From contig ML978122.1 in the NCBI GenBank assembly GCA_010015805.1, forward strand, positions 840,453 through 904,452: DNA of 64,000 bases, in the 5' to 3' direction. Positions 1,316 to 61,987 of this stretch are shown in pieces (position 1 is the stretch's first letter; each line of letters begins with the position of its first letter). The notes beneath the pieces were generated by a model. It was not told where the DNA came from. It made no database searches and worked only from the letters and a program-made list of their open reading frames with translations. Both the position numbers and the translations under genes were made by a program. The DNA comes from Rhizodiscina lignyota (taxonomy: Eukaryota).

Positions 1316-2086
1316 GCTTGCTCGTGCTTGTGCGACTGTAACAACGCGTCTCAAGTAGCACAAGACTCATGAAAGGACGACCGCGGAATCTCTACCGTTT
1401 CAGATAAGATTGTGGATAAAAAGTCACGATGAGGTGTGGTTGCAGTCCATGTCGAATGGCTCACGGACCGTACCGCAGTCCGACGCACCTTGGGCAAGCT
1501 TAAGCTCGCCGAGCACGTGTCGCGATGCGGCTTTTGGCGACGCGCTTCTCTTCGGAGCATTTCGAGTGCTTAACAGCGTCAGGACCACTCGACTCACCAC
1601 CTCCTGCGCGTAATCTGAAGCAAATCGACGCGTCACGCGACCTCAATCTCCTGCTACAGCGCGCAAATTGACAGGCCTGGCGGCGCACTGACTGTTAAGG
1701 ATCCCTTCTCCCTTCAGGGTTGTCTCACTAGCCCCAACGGCGCCCCTAACTCCCACAGAGCGCACACAGACACCCTGACACCCACCCATCCTCCATACCA
1801 TCATCAGGACTTAAATCCACTGCAGTCCAGCAATCCGGGGTCCGAAAGCCAGTCAGCAGCGGGTCGATCAAACAACTCTCGATATATCTCCGTCAGTGGA
1901 GCGCACACACACCTCTTGTGCTCAAGGCTACTGCGTTTGGAACACTATCCGCACCACAATTTAGGCACACGTCACGAAATCCTGCTGCGCAACGGTGGGC
2001 TTGAGGATTCTCTTGGAGGCGGTACACCACATTACAACTGCAATTGAGAAGAGCAGGAAGTGCGCGGAGAAGCGCACATATTCAAG

Positions 2087-2770
2087 ATGGGCGCAAAGGT
2101 CTCTAAAATGCTGGACAAGATCTTCGGATCGAAGGAAATGCGCCTGTTGATGCTGGGACTTGATGCCGCAGGCAAGACAAGTGCGCAACCTCTCCCAACC
2201 ACCAACCACCTTAACCAGCAAAGTGTTATGCTAACAAGTAGTTCCACCTATTCAGCAATCCTCTACAACCTCAAGCTCGAGCAAGACGTCACCACCATCC
2301 CCACAGTCGGCTTCAACGTCGAGACCGTAACGTACAAGAACACCAAGTTCAACGTGTGGGACGTGGGTGGACAGGACAAGATCCGTCCATTGTGGCGGCA
2401 CTACTTCTCCGGAACGCAAGGCCTAGTCTTCGTCATCGACTCCAATGACCGCGACCGGCTGGACGAGGCAAGAACGGAACTGGCACGCATTATCCAGGAC
2501 AGGGAAATGAAGGACGCATTACTGTTGGTGTTCGCGAACAAGCAGGATATCCCTGGAGGTGAGCATACGTGGAGACACATGAAAGGCAGTTCGGGAGCTA
2601 ATGAGGATTGATCAGCAATGCGCCCTGACGAACTGTCAAGACGACTCAAGCTCGATGAAATCGCGAAGAACCACATCTGGAAGGTGGAGCCCAGCTGCGC
2701 GACGACCGGAGAGGGCATCTTCGAGGGCCTGGAGTGGCTCGGCAAGAACGTCAAAGTGCCTGCCAAGTAA
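2087..2770 (+). CDS. ARF6: ADP-ribosylation factor 6 (ArfB class) small GTPase
   Basis: Myristoylatable MG start; [46 protein letters not shown] and FANKQD motifs; introns 2181-2255 and 2559-2616; TAA ends at 2770. Confidence 0.95.
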
Positions 2771-34681: not shown

Positions 34682-35979
34682 ATGGTTCACTCATTTACCA
34701 TGGCTCGCCTTTCCTTCCTTATTTTTGCTCTTTGCAGCACCGTTCTGTCTCTACCGCAACGTCCTTATCCAAATTCCGTCTTTGTTCCTGTCCATGATAC
34801 CAATGCGCCGCAAATTTGGCCGACATCTGACTCCAAACCAGCTCGCCTTTTGGGAAAGCTAGTGTGAGTAGAGGTAACTGCGTGAGTGTGAGTTGCATCA
34901 GCTGACCATTTTGAAGACACTCTTTCGAGAAAATCCTATCTCTCGGTGCCCATTCAGCGATCCCGACAGTTACACTTTCTCCGTTTCCCACCGATGCTCA
35001 CTCCTACGGCAAGCGCGGCACTACCAGCACTAAATCCACTTCCACCGTCAAATCGACCGCCAAATCCACGTCCACGGCGAAGACGACTGCCAAATCCACG
35101 TCCACTGCGAAGACCACGGCCAAATCCACGTCCACCGCGAAAACTACCGCGAAGACCACATCCACTGCGAAAACCACCTCGAAAACCACATCCACTGCAA
35201 AGACCACCTCAACAACAAAGTCCACTACTAGCTCCAAACCCACCACCACGAGCACTAGTTCCACAACGACTTCCAGTTCCACTACTACATCTGCCATCCC
35301 CTGCATCACGGCTACTGCCGCATTCACAAACGGCGCCGGAAATAAGAATAACAAACAGACCTACGACGGCACTGGATTAGCCGCAAACGACACCTACACC
35401 TGCTACAGCCCATCCAGCTGGAAGAATTTCCCCCCAGAGTCTGAGTGGTTGGATTTTGCTACCATGTGGAACTACAACAAGGAAAACATGTACAACGCCT
35501 GCTCAAATCTGGGTCTGAGTCCTGATGATACTCTCACCCAGCTTCAGCAGATATATGCTGCCATTCAAACAGTCTCTGAGGAGTCTCTTGTTGATCATCG
35601 TTATATTCTTGCTACTGTCGTCCAGGAATCTCTCGGCTGCGTTGTTGTCGGCACAAGCACGAGCCCCGGCGAGGGCAGCCATCCAAACCCTGGTCTCATG
35701 CAGAGCCACAATGGCACCGCATATGATCCCAACAACTCCGCTGCCAGTATCCTTCAGATGATTCGAGATGGTACGGAGGGCACGATTTACGGCGACGGTC
35801 TCGTCCAGTTGATCAACTACTATGGCAACATCTACGAGACCGCTCGCGGGTACAATTCTGGCCATGTCAATCACGGGAATCTGAGTGAGGCGTACGGTGC
35901 GACCACTAGCTATGTCAATGACATTGCCAACCGCATGACTGGCTGGCTGTATGCCGATCAGCTTAACTGTACATGGTAG
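34682..35979 (+). CDS. Secreted protein with a Ser/Thr/Lys-rich stalk and a C-terminal lysozyme-like (SLT/GH23-type) domain
   Basis: Signal peptide MARLSFLIFALCSTVLS (alternative ATG 34700); intron 34864-34916 keeps the frame; KR site; S/T/K repeats; YILATVVQESLGC, NPGLMQSHNG, ARGYNSG and YVNDIANR motifs. Confidence 0.8.
35032..35211 (+). repeat. 30-bp coding tandem repeat, about 6 copies (KSTSTAKTTA)
   Basis: Units start at 35032, 35062, 35092, 35122, 35152 and 35182. Confidence 0.9.
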
Positions 35980-36630
35980 TCCGGAAGCTCGTTGAATATA
36001 GATTTATGCTTCCAGCACTGTACCTTGCTCTGTTGATTGTGACTATATGAATGCCTGTAAAGATGGCAACGAAATCCTCGAGATGATATCCGACAGTTGG
36101 AGACGTCCAGGTAGCGTTTCGTGATAGCGAGTCTCTCCATGCTTACAGGCGATCTGCAAACCCTGTCTCGGACGTCTGCAGATTATCTTCAATACCTCAG
36201 ATTTAGTGAAGAAATGACAACGACAGAGGGTGTGCAGACGGAATTTGCAATCATGCTACCTCTGGAGAAGCTTAAGAGGATGAAGAAAGAGGAGATACGA
36301 GCAAGCAAGGGTTAAATTTCGAGAATAAAATGTGATATCATCGCGAGGAACGATACTCATTCGAATGAAAAGAGGGAAGAAACCAGTAAATCTAAATCTA
36401 ATCCGATAATTAACACGCGAACCCAAAACTCCTGCCATCTATCCCAACGCCGTAAACAATGATTCATGAAATTGTAGCCTGTAAAATCTCCAACGTTTTG
36501 ATAGAAAGCGAAAGCCCCAGGAAAACTCCATGCCATGAAATAGACAAAGAAAGAAAAAACTCTATCATGAAACCCATAACTGCCTCTACAAATTGTGGGT
36601 CGCGAATGTCCGACCGCCCCAAGAGCATGT

Positions 36631-39600
36631 TCAAACATAGAACATGACATCCTGTAAGTCCTGCTTCCAAGGATTCTTCCATTCCAAGTTTCCCGGAGAA
36701 GTAGTAGACTGGGAATCGATCCAAAATGCCGAATTCTGGAGGTGCTGAGCGACACGTAGCTTGAAAGCTTCATCCTTTTCTTCTTTTCCCTGGCGGATTA
36801 GCCCGTTGGCAGCTCTGGCATTAGAGTCCCAAGCTCCAAGGTAGAACCGTCCGCGGGTGCAGAGCTTGTCGGCGCAATATGCAGGCGCGCAATATGAGAT
36901 GCCTTTTGTCGCTGGGGAGTAAGAGTAGCACATCCTGTGAGTCTCGTAGTGTGTTAGCAGAGCATCACTCGCGCCGGAGGAGCGACTTACTATAGCTTGA
37001 ATCTCTTGTGAAGTCAGGCCGATGTCGTTCTTGATCGGGTAGTAGTGAGCAGAGCGCCCCGTGCCTTTGATCGCATCGTGAGACTGAAGATAAAAGTCGC
37101 CGTCTTCTGGATGTGTGATGACGTCCTCAATCACTAAGCCTGGCTTCACATTGCCGTTCAGAGCGCCTTTCCACAATATGCTCATTCCACGCTTTTCAAA
37201 TCTTGCATTACGAGTGGGTTTCTTGCCAGATTTTGATGGGTACGTTTGATTGTTCGAGAGTGGATAAAAGCGGGCATGATGCCGCTTGCCAGCCACGACG
37301 CAAGTAATAAGAGGGGTTTCAGCAGTTTCTGCAGCCAAGTTATCGCCAAGGGCTTCGAACGCCTTTTCGGAGCCTTTCCCTATTGCCGTGAGCTCTTCGT
37401 CGCATATCGTCTGGTACTGCGTCTCGCCGACACCATCCCGGTAGTAGAGCACGTTCTGTGGGAGCCTGTAAGGGCCGTCATTTTCAGCAGTACACCTAGA
37501 CCACGCGAGGAAACGTTCGCAGGACATGTCCAATATATCTGAGATAATCTGATGGTCGTTAAATATTGACCGTAATTTGTCTGATCGCTGAACATACCTC
37601 TTGACGCCCTGACTGGAGCCTCAAACTGCCAGGAATGTTTATGAAATGCGGATCGACGGAGCCAACAAGACTGGCGATTGAGGGAGTAGCAAGATGATCC
37701 CCTTTTCGTGGATGAGTAACGTCACCTCCAAACATTATCGTATCAGCGTTAAGTCGCTCTGTATGTTTATCGACATTAATGTGGTGCGTATCTCCGCCAA
37801 GTTTGAAGTTGAACTTCAAGGCGAGGTTAGAGAAAAAAGGATCTGTTGCACCCTTGTCAATCTTTGTCAGAATAGTCGACAATTTATCCTTTTGACAGCA
37901 GATCGTCATCTTTGCGAGCTGAGTTTCGGTGATTTTCTTGATGGCAGCATAAAGCGCTTGACTCTTCTCTGGAAGTATCACCAGGGCGAGTGGCATCTCG
38001 GAGTATGTGTCGAAGAAAGTCTCGAATATTTTCTTGAGTTTATCCAGATACTGCTCCTGAGTTTCAAGGCATGGAATATGTTGACTGTGCAGGACCGGAG
38101 TCTCCTGCTCGATAGTAATTCCGTGGCCCCTGAGAGTTCGTATCGCATTTTCAGCTACCTTTGCCATGTCTAGAAAAGGAGGCTGAGCGAGAGGCTTCTC
38201 GTAATACAATCCGACGATGCCAAGCTGTTTGAGAGGGCGACCCGGTTTCACGAACTTCGTCTCGCGCAGATCCCACGAGGCACATGCGGGGGTAACTGAT
38301 GGCTTATCGCCAAATTGGATCGTCGGGGCAACTAGAGTTTTCGCTGGCACTCTCAAGAGCTTAGTTATGACATCGAACCCAAGCGCATCCTGAAAAGTCA
38401 GCATGAACAATTCTTACGATAGCGATGATGAAGTAAATTACCAGGGTTGAGGATGTATCTGCCAAGCCAAGACGTTCCAATCACTCAGTCATGATCAAAT
38501 TTGCATTGCTCGCCGGATCTTGGAGTGCTCTGGCGATCATTGAGTTTGAGAGCTTGGAAGGAAGCAAGTGGGTGAAAGGCTGGTTTGCCAGTAGTTCAAG
38601 GCAATCTGACGGAATCCATCTCGCTTTGTGTCGGTCTTCATCCTTGTCATCTCGCGGAACGTACCCAACGTTGACGCAAGGAGCCTCCGGATCGAGCTTG
38701 TTGGTTTTCTGTTTCGAGAACGTATCTTTTATGCCGTGTTAGTAAAGTACTAGGTTGTTAGGACACTCAATAACATACTTTTGAAGTAGTCAAGGACAGG
38801 ACTGGCCTTGAAGTCATTTTGGAGCTTCTTGTAGTTAACTTCTTTTGCAACTGGTTTCCCAATTGCGGTAATGCAAACGTTGCGGAAAGCGTTTGGATCA
38901 GGATCGGTATCAGGATTATGATGTAGCCGCTGGTATGTGATGCGTGCTGATTTTCCAACGAGAGACTTGGAGATCAGTTGAGGTGGGCAACCAGCTGATT
39001 TCATGCGAGCGATGAACTTTGAGACAAGAATCGGGCGTAAAAAGGCGGAAGTAACGGTGTTAACATTGATGAGCATAGTAGAAGTTCCAGGTCTCACCGA
39101 TGAGAAGTAGCCACGATTAGCTAGGAGTGCAGACATCGGAGCTGTGTCATTTGCGTCCCCAGGGCCAGCCTTTGCTCTCGATTTGGTTCCGACAGGCGCA
39201 AGGAACTAATATCCCGCGTTCAAGAAAAATTTATTTGCGCCAATTTGTGTGATCTGATCCGGACGACGTCCGTTGGCATATTTTGCGATGTAAGCATTCA
39301 ACGCTTGTTTCCATGAAGATGCCAATGCAGGATCTGCGGTGCCACGTCGATTCCATTCTTGCAGACTTTCGTGCTTTGAGGATTGAGAGAAATCCAGTAT
39401 GCCCTTGAATTCGTATGCAAGGAATGGCACCTTGGCGATGTGACCAGTTCGTTCTTCGAAATCAAAAGGGTCGATAGGATAGATTTGACCAATGTCTCCA
39501 TCTTGGTGGCTCCACAGTGGCTTGGTTGCCCAAATCTTCGAAAAATCCGTCGCCAAATCATCTCTCCCTTGCAACGGAGGGCGAGAATTGAGCAGATTCA

Positions 39601-40270
39601 TGACTTTCTTCTTGTCTTCACGTCTTTTGATAATCTTTTCCCTTGCTTTTTGCTCTGGTTTTGCACTCTGGGAATTATTTCCGCCTGTCGAAGATTTGCC
39701 TGACGTCGCTGCAGACGAGTTTGATGGAACAGGTGCGGCTTTCGGCTGCACGGGAAGAGTCTTCGTCGTTTCAGGCTGGCCCGTTTCGTAGAGGATGGTG
39801 TACTCGTACAGCTTGTCTGGACAGTCTCGTAGCAGTAGATAATTGGTAATGACTTCATGTTGAGTGGAAGTTGCCGTCGATGCCTTGTGGGTTCTTTCTT
39901 TTGCATTTTCAAGGACTGCGAGCTCGTGGAGTTTCTCCTTTTCGGCATCGGGAAGCTTGATGACCGCCTCTCCGGGAAATTTTAAATTGCACTTCTGCAA
40001 CTCAGCCTTACCCTCGTGAGCCTCTTTGTTGACCTTTTCTGTCGTCATTGGATTTGGCACTGTTGGCCAGCCTCTCCAGAACTTTTGCTCAAGATCCCAG
40101 GCAAGCCGTGGAGGATATTCTGGATTGTCACGATATCACCGCCAGAGTACTCGCCTTGAGTCGAAATCCGTTCCATTTTTCAAGGTCGGAGCACTACACC
40201 TTTCAACTTCGTGATGTGGATCCCTCGGCAGCTTTCCGTCCTTGTCAGGAAGATTGTCACAGCGGTGCTT
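36631..40270 (-). pseudogene. Argonaute (N-L1-PAZ-MID-PIWI) with in-frame premature stops
   Basis: ITNY, IGANKFF, RGYFSSVRPG, CVNVG, WIPSDCLEL, LYAAIKK, NLALKFNFKLGG, FGGDVTHP, RQE, YYRDGVGE, KRHHARF, DFYLQSH and PAYCADKLCTRG motifs; four introns; stops TAG 39208-39206, TGA 38483-38481 and TGA 40138-40136. The 5' boundary is approximate. Confidence 0.85.
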
Positions 40271-40516
40271 CTGCGGACGTTGTCTTTTGATCGGTCGCTG
40301 AGTTGATGTGATAGAAATTTGGAAGATGAATCTAGTTGTCAAATGTGAATATGAACTGTCTTTTATATCCCACTGAGACAATAAGTTTAGCATGGTTGGG
40401 GGTTTCTTTGCCGGCTTGCTAATAAAATGATTACTGTCAAAACAAAGAAGTACAACGCAGCGAGAGCAAGACACAAACGTTGGGAATCTCTGATGCCACC
40501 GCGCAGGATACGCTAA

Positions 40517-41721
40517 TTAACCTAGAGCTCTCATGACGCCTTCAAATGCAACAAGAGCCATGGCATTTGCAGGAAATCTGATGGTAGTTAGCATGTATGT
40601 GTGTGGCAATCGTGATGTATCGCACATACGCTCTTAGAAAACATGGCGTGAAGCCTCTCCAATAACCTCTCCATCCACTCTCTCTCCAGACCGTACGCGC
40701 AGCATCGGACCAGCGTTTGAATTTACGATCAGGACCCAGCGGATCTGTCATAATGCGCTGTTTGACAACGTCGGAGGGATACGATGTGATCCAGAACACT
40801 TGCGCAGACAAACCACCAGCCCAAAAGTTGACCGCTGGCGTGGAGAGTGACGTGTGTGTCGACAGCGCGCGGGTAAGCAAATCGTATGACGACCACCAGA
40901 AGAAAAAGAACGTCCGAAAGATCAGGGTCGCAAACAAGCCGTGAAAAAGACCGCTGACACCATGAGAGCGAAGCTGTTCGCGGGTGAGTACACTATTCTG
41001 TTGTTTGTAACGTACGTGCTTACAAGCTTTCGTGTGCAATCAATTGGCCCACTGTACAGCCGTTTGGATTTGTCTGCTGCATATTGGATCTGCAAGCGCG
41101 CTTTGACGTGTTCAAACGGCGCAGCAATGAAGCTTACAGTCCAGCCTGCCATCATTCCCGCAATACCATGGCCGACTGCTGGCATCTTGCGGTCTCCCGC
41201 ATTCGCCGTCGGCCGTGGAGCGTGCAACGGATTGAAGAAGTTGTCGTTGAGCAACCCGCGATAGACAGTCAGAGAACCAAGCATCACTGCAGCTTGTCGT
41301 CAATGTCACAGTATAACGACAACTTTGAACAAAATTGGTATCATACGAGAGTCCATGAACATCCATCCTATCAGAGGGGGCGTTGCCCCTTTATACAAGC
41401 CTCGGACGCCTTCTTTGCGTACCGTCTGGAGCACGCAATCCAGCGGCCCTCGGAATTGCGATTTTTCAGAGGTCTGGAGACGAACTTTAATGGTATCGAA
41501 CCTAAGTTAGATAAGCACATGATATTTAAGAGATCCGCCATTTCTTCATCAATAACGGGCAAAGCCTTGACGTGTATCCAAAGAGCGGCCAGGAAATGGC
41601 AGCAAACTCACGGATGACCAACGCTCAACTTGGCGATTCCAGAGAATACTCCAGCCACGAAGCCTTTGTAGTTCGTGATGGCAGGCAGCTCTGGCTCAGA
41701 CTTTGCCTTGACTCCCGCCAT
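40517..41721 (-). CDS. Mitochondrial carrier (SLC25), YMC1/carnitine-carrier-like
   Basis: Three carrier signatures [23 protein letters not shown] and [11 protein letters not shown]; four introns. Confidence 0.93.
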
Positions 41722-59593: not shown

Positions 59594-60964
59594 TTAGTCC
59601 CAGTATTTGATCAACCCCGCCAAGTCACCAGTCACCACCTTACTCGTCTCTCTCGGGTGCCACTGGCACGCCACCACGGGCGTCTCGCTCGCCTTGATCT
59701 TGTGCCACATCTTGCACGTCTTCCAGTCCCAGAAGCACACATAGCCACCCGAGTCACCGCTCATCACGATGCCACCATCCGGCGAGATATCCACATCAAT
59801 AGCGTACCCAGCATTATTGTGCCCCTTGAAGCCCTTCTTCCTGTTCTGCCGGAAGCGCTCGCTGCTTGCGTACACCACGATCTGGTTGTCCTGGCTCTGG
59901 AACGCAACGAACGGCTTCTTCGGGTGGCTGGCGGCGCGCACCATGCTGAACATGTGCGGTTCGGCGATGAACTTGATCGGTACGGGTATGCCGTACTCCC
60001 ACGCGCGCAGAGACTTGTCGTCGCTGGTGGTGATGAAGCGCCGATTCTCGTCGCAGAAGGTCACCGTGTTGACCGGACCCAAGTGATGGTCGTACTCTTG
60101 CACCTGCTCCCCGCTCTTCGTGTCAAACTGCACGATCTTCTTGTCCGCCATGCCGGCGAGGAACTCGTGGTTGTGCGCTGGGTCCGGGTTGAAGCGGACG
60201 ACGTGGGCGGTCTTGCCGGTGCTGAAGCGAGAAATGCATGCGCCAGTTTCGGTGTCCCAGAGCTTCATCTGCCGATCGTACGAAGCGGTTAAGAAGCGCG
60301 TCCCGTCGTTGTTGAAGGCGATGTCGTTCACGGATTTGCTGTGGCCCGAGTAAGTGCGCAGGAGACTGCGCTCGTGGTACACGTCCCAGAGCTTCACTTT
60401 GCAGTCGGCGGAAGCGCTCAGGAGTAGGTGGCCCGAGCTGGGGAAGAAGCGCATTTGGTTTATCGGACCGGTGTGGCCCTTGAAGGTGTGAATCTGTCGC
60501 TTCGGATGGTAGCACTGCAGACTGCTGATGTCGCCGCGCAGATCAATGCCCAGATCCTGTGGCACATGCATGTATGTCCTGCCCTGGTAGTCGTACATCT
60601 CCTCGCCATGGAATTCACTCGTCTCTTTACTGCCATTGTCACCTTCGTAGTCTGTGCCTGCAGTTGTGGCTGGTCTCGCTGGCTGCTCCTCAATCTCATC
60701 CTCCTCGTAGACCACGACAACCTCTTCGTCTTCATCCGAACTCTCCTCCGGCGTGTCTTCCTTGTATTTCGCCCATGGTCCTTTATACGCGCCTGCGCCG
60801 TAGATTTTGGAAGGGTCCCCGGCTTCTTCACGCTTGCGCTTCTTGGTGGGTGGCTCGGCGGCGGACTGGAGTTTGTTGTGAGCAGCGCGAAAGGTGCTGT
60901 CGCTGATGACGATTTCGTCGGCCCAACCGGTGGGTACCCTGCCGCCGTTGGTGCTGTTCGACAT
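59594..60964 (-). CDS. CDC40: Pre-mRNA splicing factor CDC40/PRP17 (WD40)
   Basis: YDYQGRTYMHVPQDL, FFPSSGHLLLS, QEYDHHLGPVN, TTSDDKSLRAWEYGIPVPIK, FKGHNNAGY, WHPRETSKV, IKYWD; no intron. Confidence 0.96.
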   Translation of the reverse strand: MSNSTNGGRVPTGWADEIVISDSTFRAAHNKLQSAAEPPTKKRKREEAGDPSKIYGAGAYKGPWAKYKEDTPEESSDEDEEVVVVYEEDEIEEQPARPATTAGTDYEGDNGSKETSEFHGEEMYDYQGRTYMHVPQDLGIDLRGDISSLQCYHPKRQIHTFKGHTGPINQMRFFPSSGHLLLSASADCKVKLWDVYHERSLLRTYSGHSKSVNDIAFNNDGTRFLTASYDRQMKLWDTETGACISRFSTGKTAHVVRFNPDPAHNHEFLAGMADKKIVQFDTKSGEQVQEYDHHLGPVNTVTFCDENRRFITTSDDKSLRAWEYGIPVPIKFIAEPHMFSMVRAASHPKKPFVAFQSQDNQIVVYASSERFRQNRKKGFKGHNNAGYAIDVDISPDGGIVMSGDSGGYVCFWDWKTCKMWHKIKASETPVVACQWHPRETSKVVTGDLAGLIKYWD

Positions 60965-61609
60965 GTTGCAAGGTTGAAGAAAGGGTTGTTGTTGATGTGA
61001 AGTGGGATGCCGTTACCTCGAAACTTTTTCTGGTTAAGAGTGACGTTGGTCTTGGCGCGCTCATGTTTCCCGCGGCACGCGTTAGGTATCAATTTCACGC
61101 GAACAAGCAACGCAGACCTCACTTATTCATCAATGTTCGGAAATTTCCTCATATTAGACACTACCTAATTCGCCTGCATGTGGGCATATAATTTCTACTC
61201 TCTGTACAACGTCCATGCTCAGCGATTGATGATGCCCATCAGGGCTCTCTCATCTTCCTGACCTCAGCTCTATTCACTGCTTTTGCTCTCATGGTGGCTA
61301 TGTGCCTGAGACTACATATTCTCTTCCTTCATTGCAGCAATGCGGCGCGTTGTCCCATTCAGCATCCATTGCTGAAGCAAGAGTCTTCCATTCGTGATAG
61401 ACAATCGGCCGTCGCAATGTCACCGTCTGGCTCGAGGATGATCCGCCTGCTTTTGCGCTTCGTCGAGAGCAAGTGCTCGATGCATAAGGATCGTTCGATA
61501 TGCGCGCTGCTGGGAATATGCGGCCGTTGATGTTGTGCTAATTTGTATAGTGAGGGCCATGAGTTCGGTATTAGAAGAATCGTATATCATCCCCGATCCG
61601 AGTCCACCA

Positions 61610-61987
61610 CTATGGCAATGCAGCCATGGACGCATTCCTCCCAAGCGCATTCGTTGCAACCACGACGGCCTTCTCCATCGCCTCCACGGATGGCGAGACG
61701 ATTATATTTCCGACGACGCTCAGCTGCGGCAATTGCTTGCTCTCCAAGAGCGAACGCACTAATGCGACGACCGTGTACGAGAAGATTTGGTTGGAGAGCC
61801 ACAGTACCGCAGAAAGAATTGCCAATGTAAAGAGATAGCAGACGAGACGTTCACCCGGCGTCATGACGTAGAGACCAAACGTGACGATGAACCAGTAGTG
61901 GAAGTCTGAAAGCTTGTCTCGAATCGCATTGAATGGGGAAGCGTCGCGCTTCGTCTCGTGGTATATCACATGCTCGGGAAACCCCAT
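61610..61987 (-). CDS. Serine palmitoyltransferase small-subunit-like (DUF3317) membrane protein
   Basis: HYWFIVTFGLYVMTPGERLVCYLFTLAILSAVLW fits the Y.vTf.lYm.tP.E + transmembrane-helix pattern. Confidence 0.6.
   Translation of the reverse strand: MGFPEHVIYHETKRDASPFNAIRDKLSDFHYWFIVTFGLYVMTPGERLVCYLFTLAILSAVLWLSNQIFSYTVVALVRSLLESKQLPQLSVVGNIIVSPSVEAMEKAVVVATNALGRNASMAALP

Follow-up and report, generated by a model that had tools for sequence, protein, structure and literature searches.

Can an Argonaute gene that keeps every catalytic residue but is interrupted by in-frame stop codons still yield an Argonaute? The question is raised by a locus in the Dothideomycete Rhizodiscina lignyota (order Aulographales), on the minus strand of a 64,000-nucleotide stretch of contig ML978122.1 (assembly GCA_010015805.1, positions 840,453 to 904,452). 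This whole stretch is called the window here, and coordinates are given within it. An earlier note, made from the letters alone, had placed a complete Argonaute with an intact slicer tetrad at 36631..40270, and had preferred the recent loss of a divergent RNA interference (RNAi) paralogue to recoding of the stops. We reached the same preference by analysing the gene model, its relatives and the stops themselves. The locus is probably a slicer-type Argonaute gene that has only lately become an unprocessed pseudogene, or that is present as a null allele in the sequenced strain. Its clade, distinct from QDE-2, evolves fast and seems prone to losses. This reading was the best supported: the stops are real, the nearest relatives are intact, and the gene falls outside the QDE-2 clade.

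The gene was modelled from stop-to-stop open reading frames (ORFs), the sequence and exon translations, and comprises five exons and 1071 codons between 40048 and 36631 (Table 1). The joined coding sequence is 3216 nt long and contains stops only at codons 281, 505 and 1072, the last being the normal end. The first in-frame ATG is at 40048-40046, and the earlier upper boundary of 40270 was therefore too generous. Upstream of the acceptor, a branch-like CTAAC or TTAAC is present in three of the four introns; intron 2 is without one. The GAG acceptor of intron 4, which had been flagged as unusual, is uncommon but real. It is the first AG past the CTGCTAAC branch site, and the resulting junction (EIQAI/THRMCYSYS) is that of the NCBI model P0008 and matches the family consensus LQxLTHAFCYxY.

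In the NCBI annotation the locus is represented by P0008, a 558-aa 'Piwi-domain-containing protein' that covers only the part downstream of the TGA. The product of exon 3 is 100% identical to part of this protein. The model starts at an ATG within intron 2 (38404-38402) and then uses the same introns 3 and 4. Evidently the annotators kept solely the part after the TGA, so that the N-terminal 504 codons and both stops were hidden.

Relatives were collected in an exhaustive HMMER search, which gave 5250 matches at E up to 0.001; the nearest non-self match was 41% identical, among the matches listed. For alignment we took the first 45 proteins of 900-1250 aa, in rank order, among the best 150 HMMER matches, and used MAFFT with fast settings. 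All four residues of the catalytic tetrad are present in the Rhizodiscina gene: D741 (GGDVTH), E782 (RQE), D820 (RDGV) and D993 (CADK). Each is invariant in 45/45 relatives, and the motifs align with GADVTHP, RQEII, YRDGV and PAYYAH of human AGO2. The MID pocket for the guide 5′ phosphate is also kept (Y665, K669, K710 and K714), and the C-terminus, MFYV, is free and intact. At the position matching human Gln545 the gene has Ile, and its clade has V or I. Human AGO2 chains match the C-terminal 558 residues with E 7.5e-51. From these sequence features the locus is classed as a slicer-type, AGO-clade Argonaute gene, and the earlier description of a complete DEDD tetrad and MID residues holds.

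The further statement that all domains are collinear was examined with Pfam and tblastn. Pfam searches of the exon pieces found only ArgoL1 and Piwi, the exon 3 piece covering positions 3-123 of the Piwi profile PF02171 and the exon 4 piece 144-265; no PAZ or ArgoN match was obtained in the exon pieces. The N and PAZ regions are collinear with relatives by tblastn, including CVNVG...WIP...QPF, and for this region collinearity comes from tblastn alone. The same Pfam pattern is found in the Aplosporella prunicola relative P0024, whose precomputed matches are ArgoL1 and Piwi only, likewise without PAZ and ArgoN.

Both stops lie exactly where they had been placed, the TAG in NAGY*FL and the TGA in IMTE*LERLG. 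Their reality was assessed with the Logan assembly of the only public run covering the locus, which is probably the assembly's own data. The Logan contig (57 kb, depth 157) matches positions 36400-40600 with 0 differences and 0 gaps. Because of this match, an assembler slip or low-coverage error is ruled out for both stops. The proposal that sequencing or assembly errors, or mutations of the cultured isolate, conceal an intact wild gene would draw on the fact that a single run covers the locus and may be the assembly's own data. Against it, the independent Logan assembly (depth 157) agrees letter for letter and lists no variant, and culture is an unlikely source of two separate nonsense changes within a single gene of 3.2 kb. 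Of the substitutions possible in the Argonaute coding sequence, 3.3-4.3% are nonsense, and at that rate a second stop would imply roughly 20-30 substitutions in the gene. We consider an artefact extremely unlikely.

The two stops differ in their surroundings. The TGA stands at a column that is Gly in 39/45 relatives, Ala in 5/45 and Val in 1/45, as the earlier note had surmised in assigning this stop to a Gly. Because codon 505 stands at this conserved Gly, a transversion from GGA to TGA is its simplest origin. The column that holds the TAG is variable in the 45 relatives (T in 7, A in 5, K in 5, E in 3, 10 gaps, and no W). Alignments of six relatives by tblastn run through both stops uninterrupted. 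Since homology crosses both, neither stop is intronic.

Splicing that would skip the stops was also examined, and for neither was a plausible intron found. Of the GT..AG spans around the TAG, 29 keep the frame, and all of these have non-consensus donors (GTCAAA, GTCACA, GTGCCA, GTCTGC, GTGGCA, GTTGAA, GTCGTC or GTCCGG) and would remove homologous sequence such as GANKFF. Around the TGA there are 2 candidate spans, and both run into the wrong frame of exon 3.

A third TGA had been counted as lying in an N-terminal extension. The codon exists, but it is most likely in the 5′ untranslated region, outside the coding sequence, and is not a lesion. This follows because no ATG lies between 40138-40136 and 40048-40046, homology starts later, and a carrier gene lies close upstream. 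The tblastn match with Aulographum upstream of ATG 40048 is weak and of low complexity, and clear homology starts at EVITNYL EVITNYLLLRDCPDKLYEY.

If the stops are read as such, translation from ATG 40048 would end after 280 residues, before PAZ, MID and PIWI, and would be expected to give no guide-binding or slicing protein. Introns follow both stops, and nonsense-mediated decay would therefore probably act on the spliced mRNA. Since the tetrad, the MID pocket, the C-terminus and the splice sites have all survived, the loss would be young, or the gene a null allele of the strain that was sequenced. Disabling lesions in genomic DNA with four introns in place fit an unprocessed pseudogene, whether unitary or paralogous.

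The state of the remaining sequence was measured as agreement with conserved columns in the alignment (46 rows). The Rhizodiscina gene agrees at 64/65 columns conserved at >=95%, at 81/86 at >=90% and at 128/151 at >=80%, the last being the 6th worst of the 46 (median 91%). This pattern fits a gene that was selected until recently, and does not separate a pseudogene from a recoded gene. The best relative is only 41-42% identical, too distant for the ratio of nonsynonymous to synonymous substitution.

The absence of a frameshift, which the earlier note had stressed, is true of the gene but carries little weight given the rates of nonsense and indel mutation. With indel-to-substitution ratios of 0.03 to 0.2 (assumed values, not measured here), the first two lesions would both be nonsense in 39% down to 3% of cases. 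Because this outcome has a 3-39% chance, two stops without a frameshift are unremarkable under neutral decay unless indels are common in Rhizodiscina lignyota.

Repeat-induced point mutation (RIP) was rejected as the source of the stops. RIP is usually called at TpA/ApT above 0.89 and (CpA+TpG)/(ApC+GpT) below 1.03; over the gene the values are 0.57 and 1.35, like the rest of the 64-kb window, and GGA to TGA is also a transversion.

Several observations weigh against decay. All catalytic and guide-binding residues, the four introns and the C-terminus are intact, and nothing positively shows relaxed constraint. In our trees the end branch of the Rhizodiscina gene measures 0.93, much like those of its intact neighbours (0.76-1.04). 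At the TAG, the base at −1 is the U that editing needs, and the fold prediction puts the codon into a small hairpin, in its loop of 7 nt. Finally, the assembly was probably built from this same DNA run, so that one isolate is probably represented.

The intact state of the gene apart from its stops and the context of the TAG are also what favour conditional recoding, in which the UAG would be changed to UGG by ADAT-type A-to-I editing, the UGA would be edited or read through, and the Argonaute would be made only at one stage, for example during sexual development. In fungi, editing is strongly biased towards sites with U at −1 and towards the loops of hairpins (PMC11156358, in the text available). 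The hairpins at the Rhizodiscina stops fold no more stably than shuffled sequences, with z of 0.79 and 0.14 at the TAG and −0.32 and −0.47 at the TGA, and on these predicted folds the hairpin argument for editing appears weak. The TGA is a poor editing context, as had been anticipated. A G precedes its A, which the fold prediction places in a stem, and an edit would give Trp where 39/45 relatives have Gly. In the Rhizodiscina gene it is therefore not the case that every premature stop is a UAG with U before the edited A. Because the second stop is a UGA at a Gly, with its A after G and in a predicted stem, UAG-to-UGG editing of the Sordariomycete type cannot rescue the gene. Nor do the codons that follow the stops, TTC after the TAG and TTG after the TGA, form the UGA-CUA type of context, which is a context for readthrough. 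Dikarya are not known to have selenocysteine machinery. None of the 12 other same-frame ORF pairs scanned in the window has a domain spanning its stop.

The published record of editing bears on recoding in both directions, as far as it is represented in the available parts of three studies. In Fusarium, 71 genes have a premature stop codon that editing corrects (PSC genes), and in every one of them it is UAG (PMC10776026). That study deals with TAG alone, with 0 occurrences of 'UGA' in its main text, and the available text of PMC11156358 presents PSC editing as a change of UAG to UGG. Within the portions available, PMC10776026 also reports that TAG stops in edited genes often stem from non-TGG codons, and that stops occur at PSC sites in single species of other Pezizomycotina classes where editing is unexamined; both points favour recoding. 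Editing is reported in Sordariomycetes and Pyronema and was not found in Aspergillus nidulans or Botrytis cinerea (PMC11156358, PMC11087585, in the parts available). An independent origin is suggested for Pyronema, and the Ame1-Tad3 interaction that editing requires is reported to have arisen within Sordariomycetes; Met-Val versus Lys-Asn residues of Ame1 are linked with editing in the same study (PMC11087585, likewise in part). The precedent invoked by the earlier note comes from Sordariomycetes, whereas the host here is a Dothideomycete. In the literature available we found no report of A-to-I mRNA editing for Dothideomycetes, which seem to serve only as a comparison class in the Fusarium studies that mention them, although no report is not the same as no editing.

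To place the stops in a wider sample, Joint Genome Institute (JGI) metagenome contigs were scanned with the clade alignment. The scan gave 80 loci in 60 distinct groups, plus the Rhizodiscina locus. Groups were assigned to the clade of the Rhizodiscina gene (76 rows) or to the remainder by best tblastn query, and a strict stop was one aligned to a residue with 15 nearly ungapped columns and >= 4 identities on each side. A strict single in-frame stop was found in 3/12 groups within the clade and in 1/48 outside it (Fisher's exact p = 0.023). Metagenome contigs may contain errors, and the loci outside the clade serve as the control. The Rhizodiscina locus itself fails the strict filter, its flanks being too divergent, and for this reason the census is conservative. 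A frameshift heuristic applied to the metagenomic loci caught mostly introns, and only L005 and the L042 group resemble true frame changes (Table 1).

The recurrence of single in-frame stops in 3/12 related loci could be taken as a point for recoding. Across the Rhizodiscina gene and its relatives in the clade, however, the stops are TGA three times and TAG twice, a mixture unlike what UAG-only editing would leave. Taken together, the evidence makes recoding very improbable in our view. From these sequences the Rhizodiscina-gene clade seems often to lose members, and the excess of in-frame stops suggests that one Argonaute lineage undergoes birth-and-death turnover, which is what an arms race would be expected to produce in a genome-defence gene.

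Recoding could also be cast as a developmental gate, in which an ADAT-type deaminase would edit the UAG to UGG, the UGA would be read through or edited, and a slicer Argonaute would appear only at one life stage, by analogy with FgRID, which relies on the editing of a premature stop and whose product FgRid acts in genome defence. The presence of FgRID, which encodes a DNA methyltransferase, among PSC-edited genes supports recoding to this extent (PMC11156358, in the text available). The gate is a highly unlikely account of the Rhizodiscina stops. If it were true, the stops in 3/12 related metagenomic loci would mark a clade-wide habit, and restorative mRNA editing or other stop recoding would extend beyond Sordariomycetes and Pezizomycetes, and to UGA.

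A truncated functional product would be either the NCBI 558-aa MID-PIWI protein, made from an internal start or promoter, or the 280-residue N-terminal fragment. The model of P0008 in Atlas has the fold of a MID-PIWI lobe (pTM 0.85; structure match TM 0.81), and there is no lesion downstream of the TGA; both are consistent with such a product. The model ATG, however, is inside intron 2, which has normal GTAATT...CAG signals, so that intron retention or an internal promoter would be needed. No family member is known to work without N and PAZ, and an Argonaute without PAZ would not hold the 3′ end of the guide. Relatives of 536-618 aa that were looked up reflect intron-blind gene calling or short contigs. 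We regard a truncated product as very unlikely.

A natural short form of the family was likewise rejected after looking up relatives of 477-685 aa. Seven of the eight single-member clusters looked up were without a long member, and six of these are unnamed ENA or Logan gene calls, which we read as intron-blind. One of the short relatives comes from a contig of 1590 nt, and another, of 477 aa, is a model that NCBI gives for Oleoguttula sp. A ninth cluster (P0051, 536 aa) also contains full-length Alternaria proteins of 1129 aa.

The pseudogene reading places the loss in a particular Argonaute lineage. FastTree trees of 60 and 105 rows, made without bootstraps, set 12 rows of the QDE-2 clade apart from a large, long-branched clade containing the Rhizodiscina gene, with support of 99. 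Of the phylogeny that had been proposed with QDE-2 and SMS-2, the QDE-2 part is thereby answered, the gene falling outside that clade; no sequence labelled SMS-2 turned up among the matches of the homology searches. A profile search with one of the alignments recovered just the first sequence of that alignment, and is uninformative on paralogues and on how widely the clade occurs. End branches are about 0.4-1.0 changes per column in the Rhizodiscina-gene clade and about 0.1-0.4 in the QDE-2 clade. The named near relatives are all Dothideomycetes (Aplosporella prunicola, Aulographum hederae, Clohesyomyces, Alternaria, Trichodelitschia, Rachicladosporium, Vermiconidia, Elasticomyces and Oleoguttula), and Sclerophora and Candelina are at the base of the clade. 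Two members were examined with Pfam, the Rhizodiscina gene and P0024, and both are without ArgoN and PAZ matches. As judged from these alignments and trees, the clade is a distinctly faster-evolving Argonaute lineage outside QDE-2, present in several Dothideomycete orders and two lichen-associated classes.

The coordinates of the gene, the stops, the metagenomic loci and the neighbouring features are collected in Table 1.

Table 1. Features of the Rhizodiscina lignyota Argonaute locus, stops in metagenomic relatives (loci L002 to L048) and other genes of the window
Feature	Position	Strand	Content	Evidence or remark
Exon 1	38779..40048	−	ATG 40048-40046, variable N-terminal lead, N domain, linker L1, first part of PAZ	ArgoL1 PF08699, E 1.6e-08; tblastn with P0082 (Aulographum hederae) and P0024 (Aplosporella prunicola)
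Intron 1	38726..38778	−	53 nt; GTATGT ... TACTAAC ... AAG	
Exon 2	38442..38725	−	remaining PAZ and start of linker L2	tblastn
Intron 2	38390..38441	−	52 nt; GTAATT ... CAG	holds ATG 38404-38402, start of the NCBI 558-aa model
Exon 3	37598..38389	−	L2, MID (Y665, K669, K710, K714), first part of PIWI; D741 (37723-37721), E782 (37600-37598)	Piwi PF02171, E 2e-16
Intron 3	37549..37597	−	49 nt; GTATGT ... CAG	directly 3′ of the RQE codons; junction as in NCBI model P0008
Exon 4	36991..37548	−	PIWI core, D820 (37437-37435)	Piwi PF02171, E 1.5e-24
Intron 4	36943..36990	−	48 nt; GTAAGT ... CTGCTAAC ... GAG	
Exon 5	36631..36942	−	PIWI end, D993 (36870-36868), C-terminus MFYV, normal stop TGA 36633-36631	
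TAG, codon 281	39206..39208	−	NAGY*FLAP; variable loop, six residues past conserved GANKFF	present in 157x DNA contig
TGA, codon 505	38481..38483	−	IMTE*LERLG; at conserved Gly of E-G-L-x-x-L-G	present in 157x DNA contig
Upstream TGA	40136..40138	−	in frame, 88 nt upstream of first in-frame ATG	
Stop in L002	162		TGA	in clade
Stop in L006	2591		TGA	in clade; segment 78% identical to Alternaria protein; flanks 15 and 14 of 15 identical
Stop in L010	2943		TAG at a Gln	in clade
Stop in L042/L046/L048	2644/2342/4615		TAG inside conserved LKFN-x-KLGG, and frame change	outside clade (one group)
Frame change in L005	~2193-2202		near C-terminus	in clade; probable lesion
Stops in L024			several stops	in clade; probable lesion
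Mitochondrial carrier gene	~40516-41600	−	multi-exon; upstream neighbour on same strand	three Mito_carr PF00153 matches
ORF of 354 aa	34915-35979	+	long Ser/Thr-rich run of STAKTTAK-like repeats, then Cys-containing C-terminal domain	no Pfam match at E up to 0.001
ARF-family small GTPase gene	~2046-2608	+		PF00025, E 1.4e-51
Three successive same-frame ORFs	60910-61827	+	93, 112 and 99 aa, split by single TAA and TGA	

From a reading of the sequence, the last exon of the mitochondrial carrier gene ends near 40516, which leaves about 470 nt for its 3′ end and for the promoter and 5′ untranslated region of the Argonaute gene. On the other side, the product of the ORF at 34915-35979 looks from its composition like a secreted or cell-wall protein.

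Reassignment of a stop codon across the genome, or the presence of many recoded genes, was considered unlikely from a survey of same-frame ORF pairs (>=90 aa each). There are 17 such pairs, three of them in the Argonaute locus. Of the other 14, 12 were scanned with Pfam, the two at 60910-61827 being left out. Only one pair has matches, those of the ARF gene, and they lie wholly downstream of its stop. The long ORF upstream of the ARF gene, in the same frame with a TGA between and without a domain match, is probably a non-coding leader. The start of the ORF run at 60910-61827 is in a higher-GC region (GC 0.58 over 60001-61000).

The analysis corrects the public annotation, in which the tail of a broken 1071-codon gene appears as a 558-aa protein in its own right. 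As a pseudogene the locus is of modest importance, a datable Argonaute loss in a class with varying Argonaute copy number, and the clade-wide excess of stops may be more useful than the single pseudogene. Were the stops recoded, restorative stop editing would be seen in Dothideomycetes for the first time.

The closest comparison is with the proteins of Aplosporella prunicola (XP_033396991.1, P0024; 1156 aa) and Aulographum hederae (KAF1983226.1, P0082; 1073 aa, from the same order as Rhizodiscina), the nearest relatives, which are intact and about 40% identical to the Rhizodiscina gene (42% over 741 columns for P0024). By tblastn both are collinear with it from the N domain to the C-terminus, and common to all three are the DEDD tetrad, the MID Y/K/K/K residues, the MF[YW][LV] C-terminus and a clade-wide insertion before NGNVxPG. 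Unlike the Rhizodiscina gene, both are annotated as uninterrupted. Both have Gly at the site of the TGA; the TAG corresponds to Thr in P0024 and falls in a loop that is shorter in P0082.

QDE-2, the quelling Argonaute of Neurospora crassa (PDB 2yhb, 2yha), belongs to the same family and has the same DEDD-type slicer site, and the MID-PIWI chain 2yhb matches with E 3.9e-41. The exon 3 product (264 aa), however, is only 26% identical to the QDE-2-clade protein P0009, whereas Dothideomycete proteins within that clade show about 50% identity with P0009 or with Sordariomycete ones. QDE-2-clade proteins are hit by Pfam ArgoN, PAZ and ArgoL2, and the Rhizodiscina gene by none of these. By sequence, the Rhizodiscina gene is not a QDE-2 orthologue.

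Lineage-specific inactivation of an Argonaute paralogue in a filamentous ascomycete that keeps other RNAi genes also recalls Aspergillus nidulans, where RNA-silencing genes are reportedly truncated; the Rhizodiscina gene, in contrast, is whole and carries point lesions only. On the side of recoding, the known system is that of the PSC pseudogenes of Fusarium graminearum (PUK1, FgRID, FgAMA1 and others); in the available text of PMC10776026 and PMC11156358 these, too, are interrupted by a premature UAG but otherwise intact and free of frameshifts. The UAG need not stand where the ancestral gene had Trp (PMC10776026, in the same portions). The Fusarium genes as described there carry UAG only and belong to Sordariomycetes, whereas the Rhizodiscina gene, in a Dothideomycete host, has in addition a UGA that replaces a conserved Gly and is poorly placed for editing.

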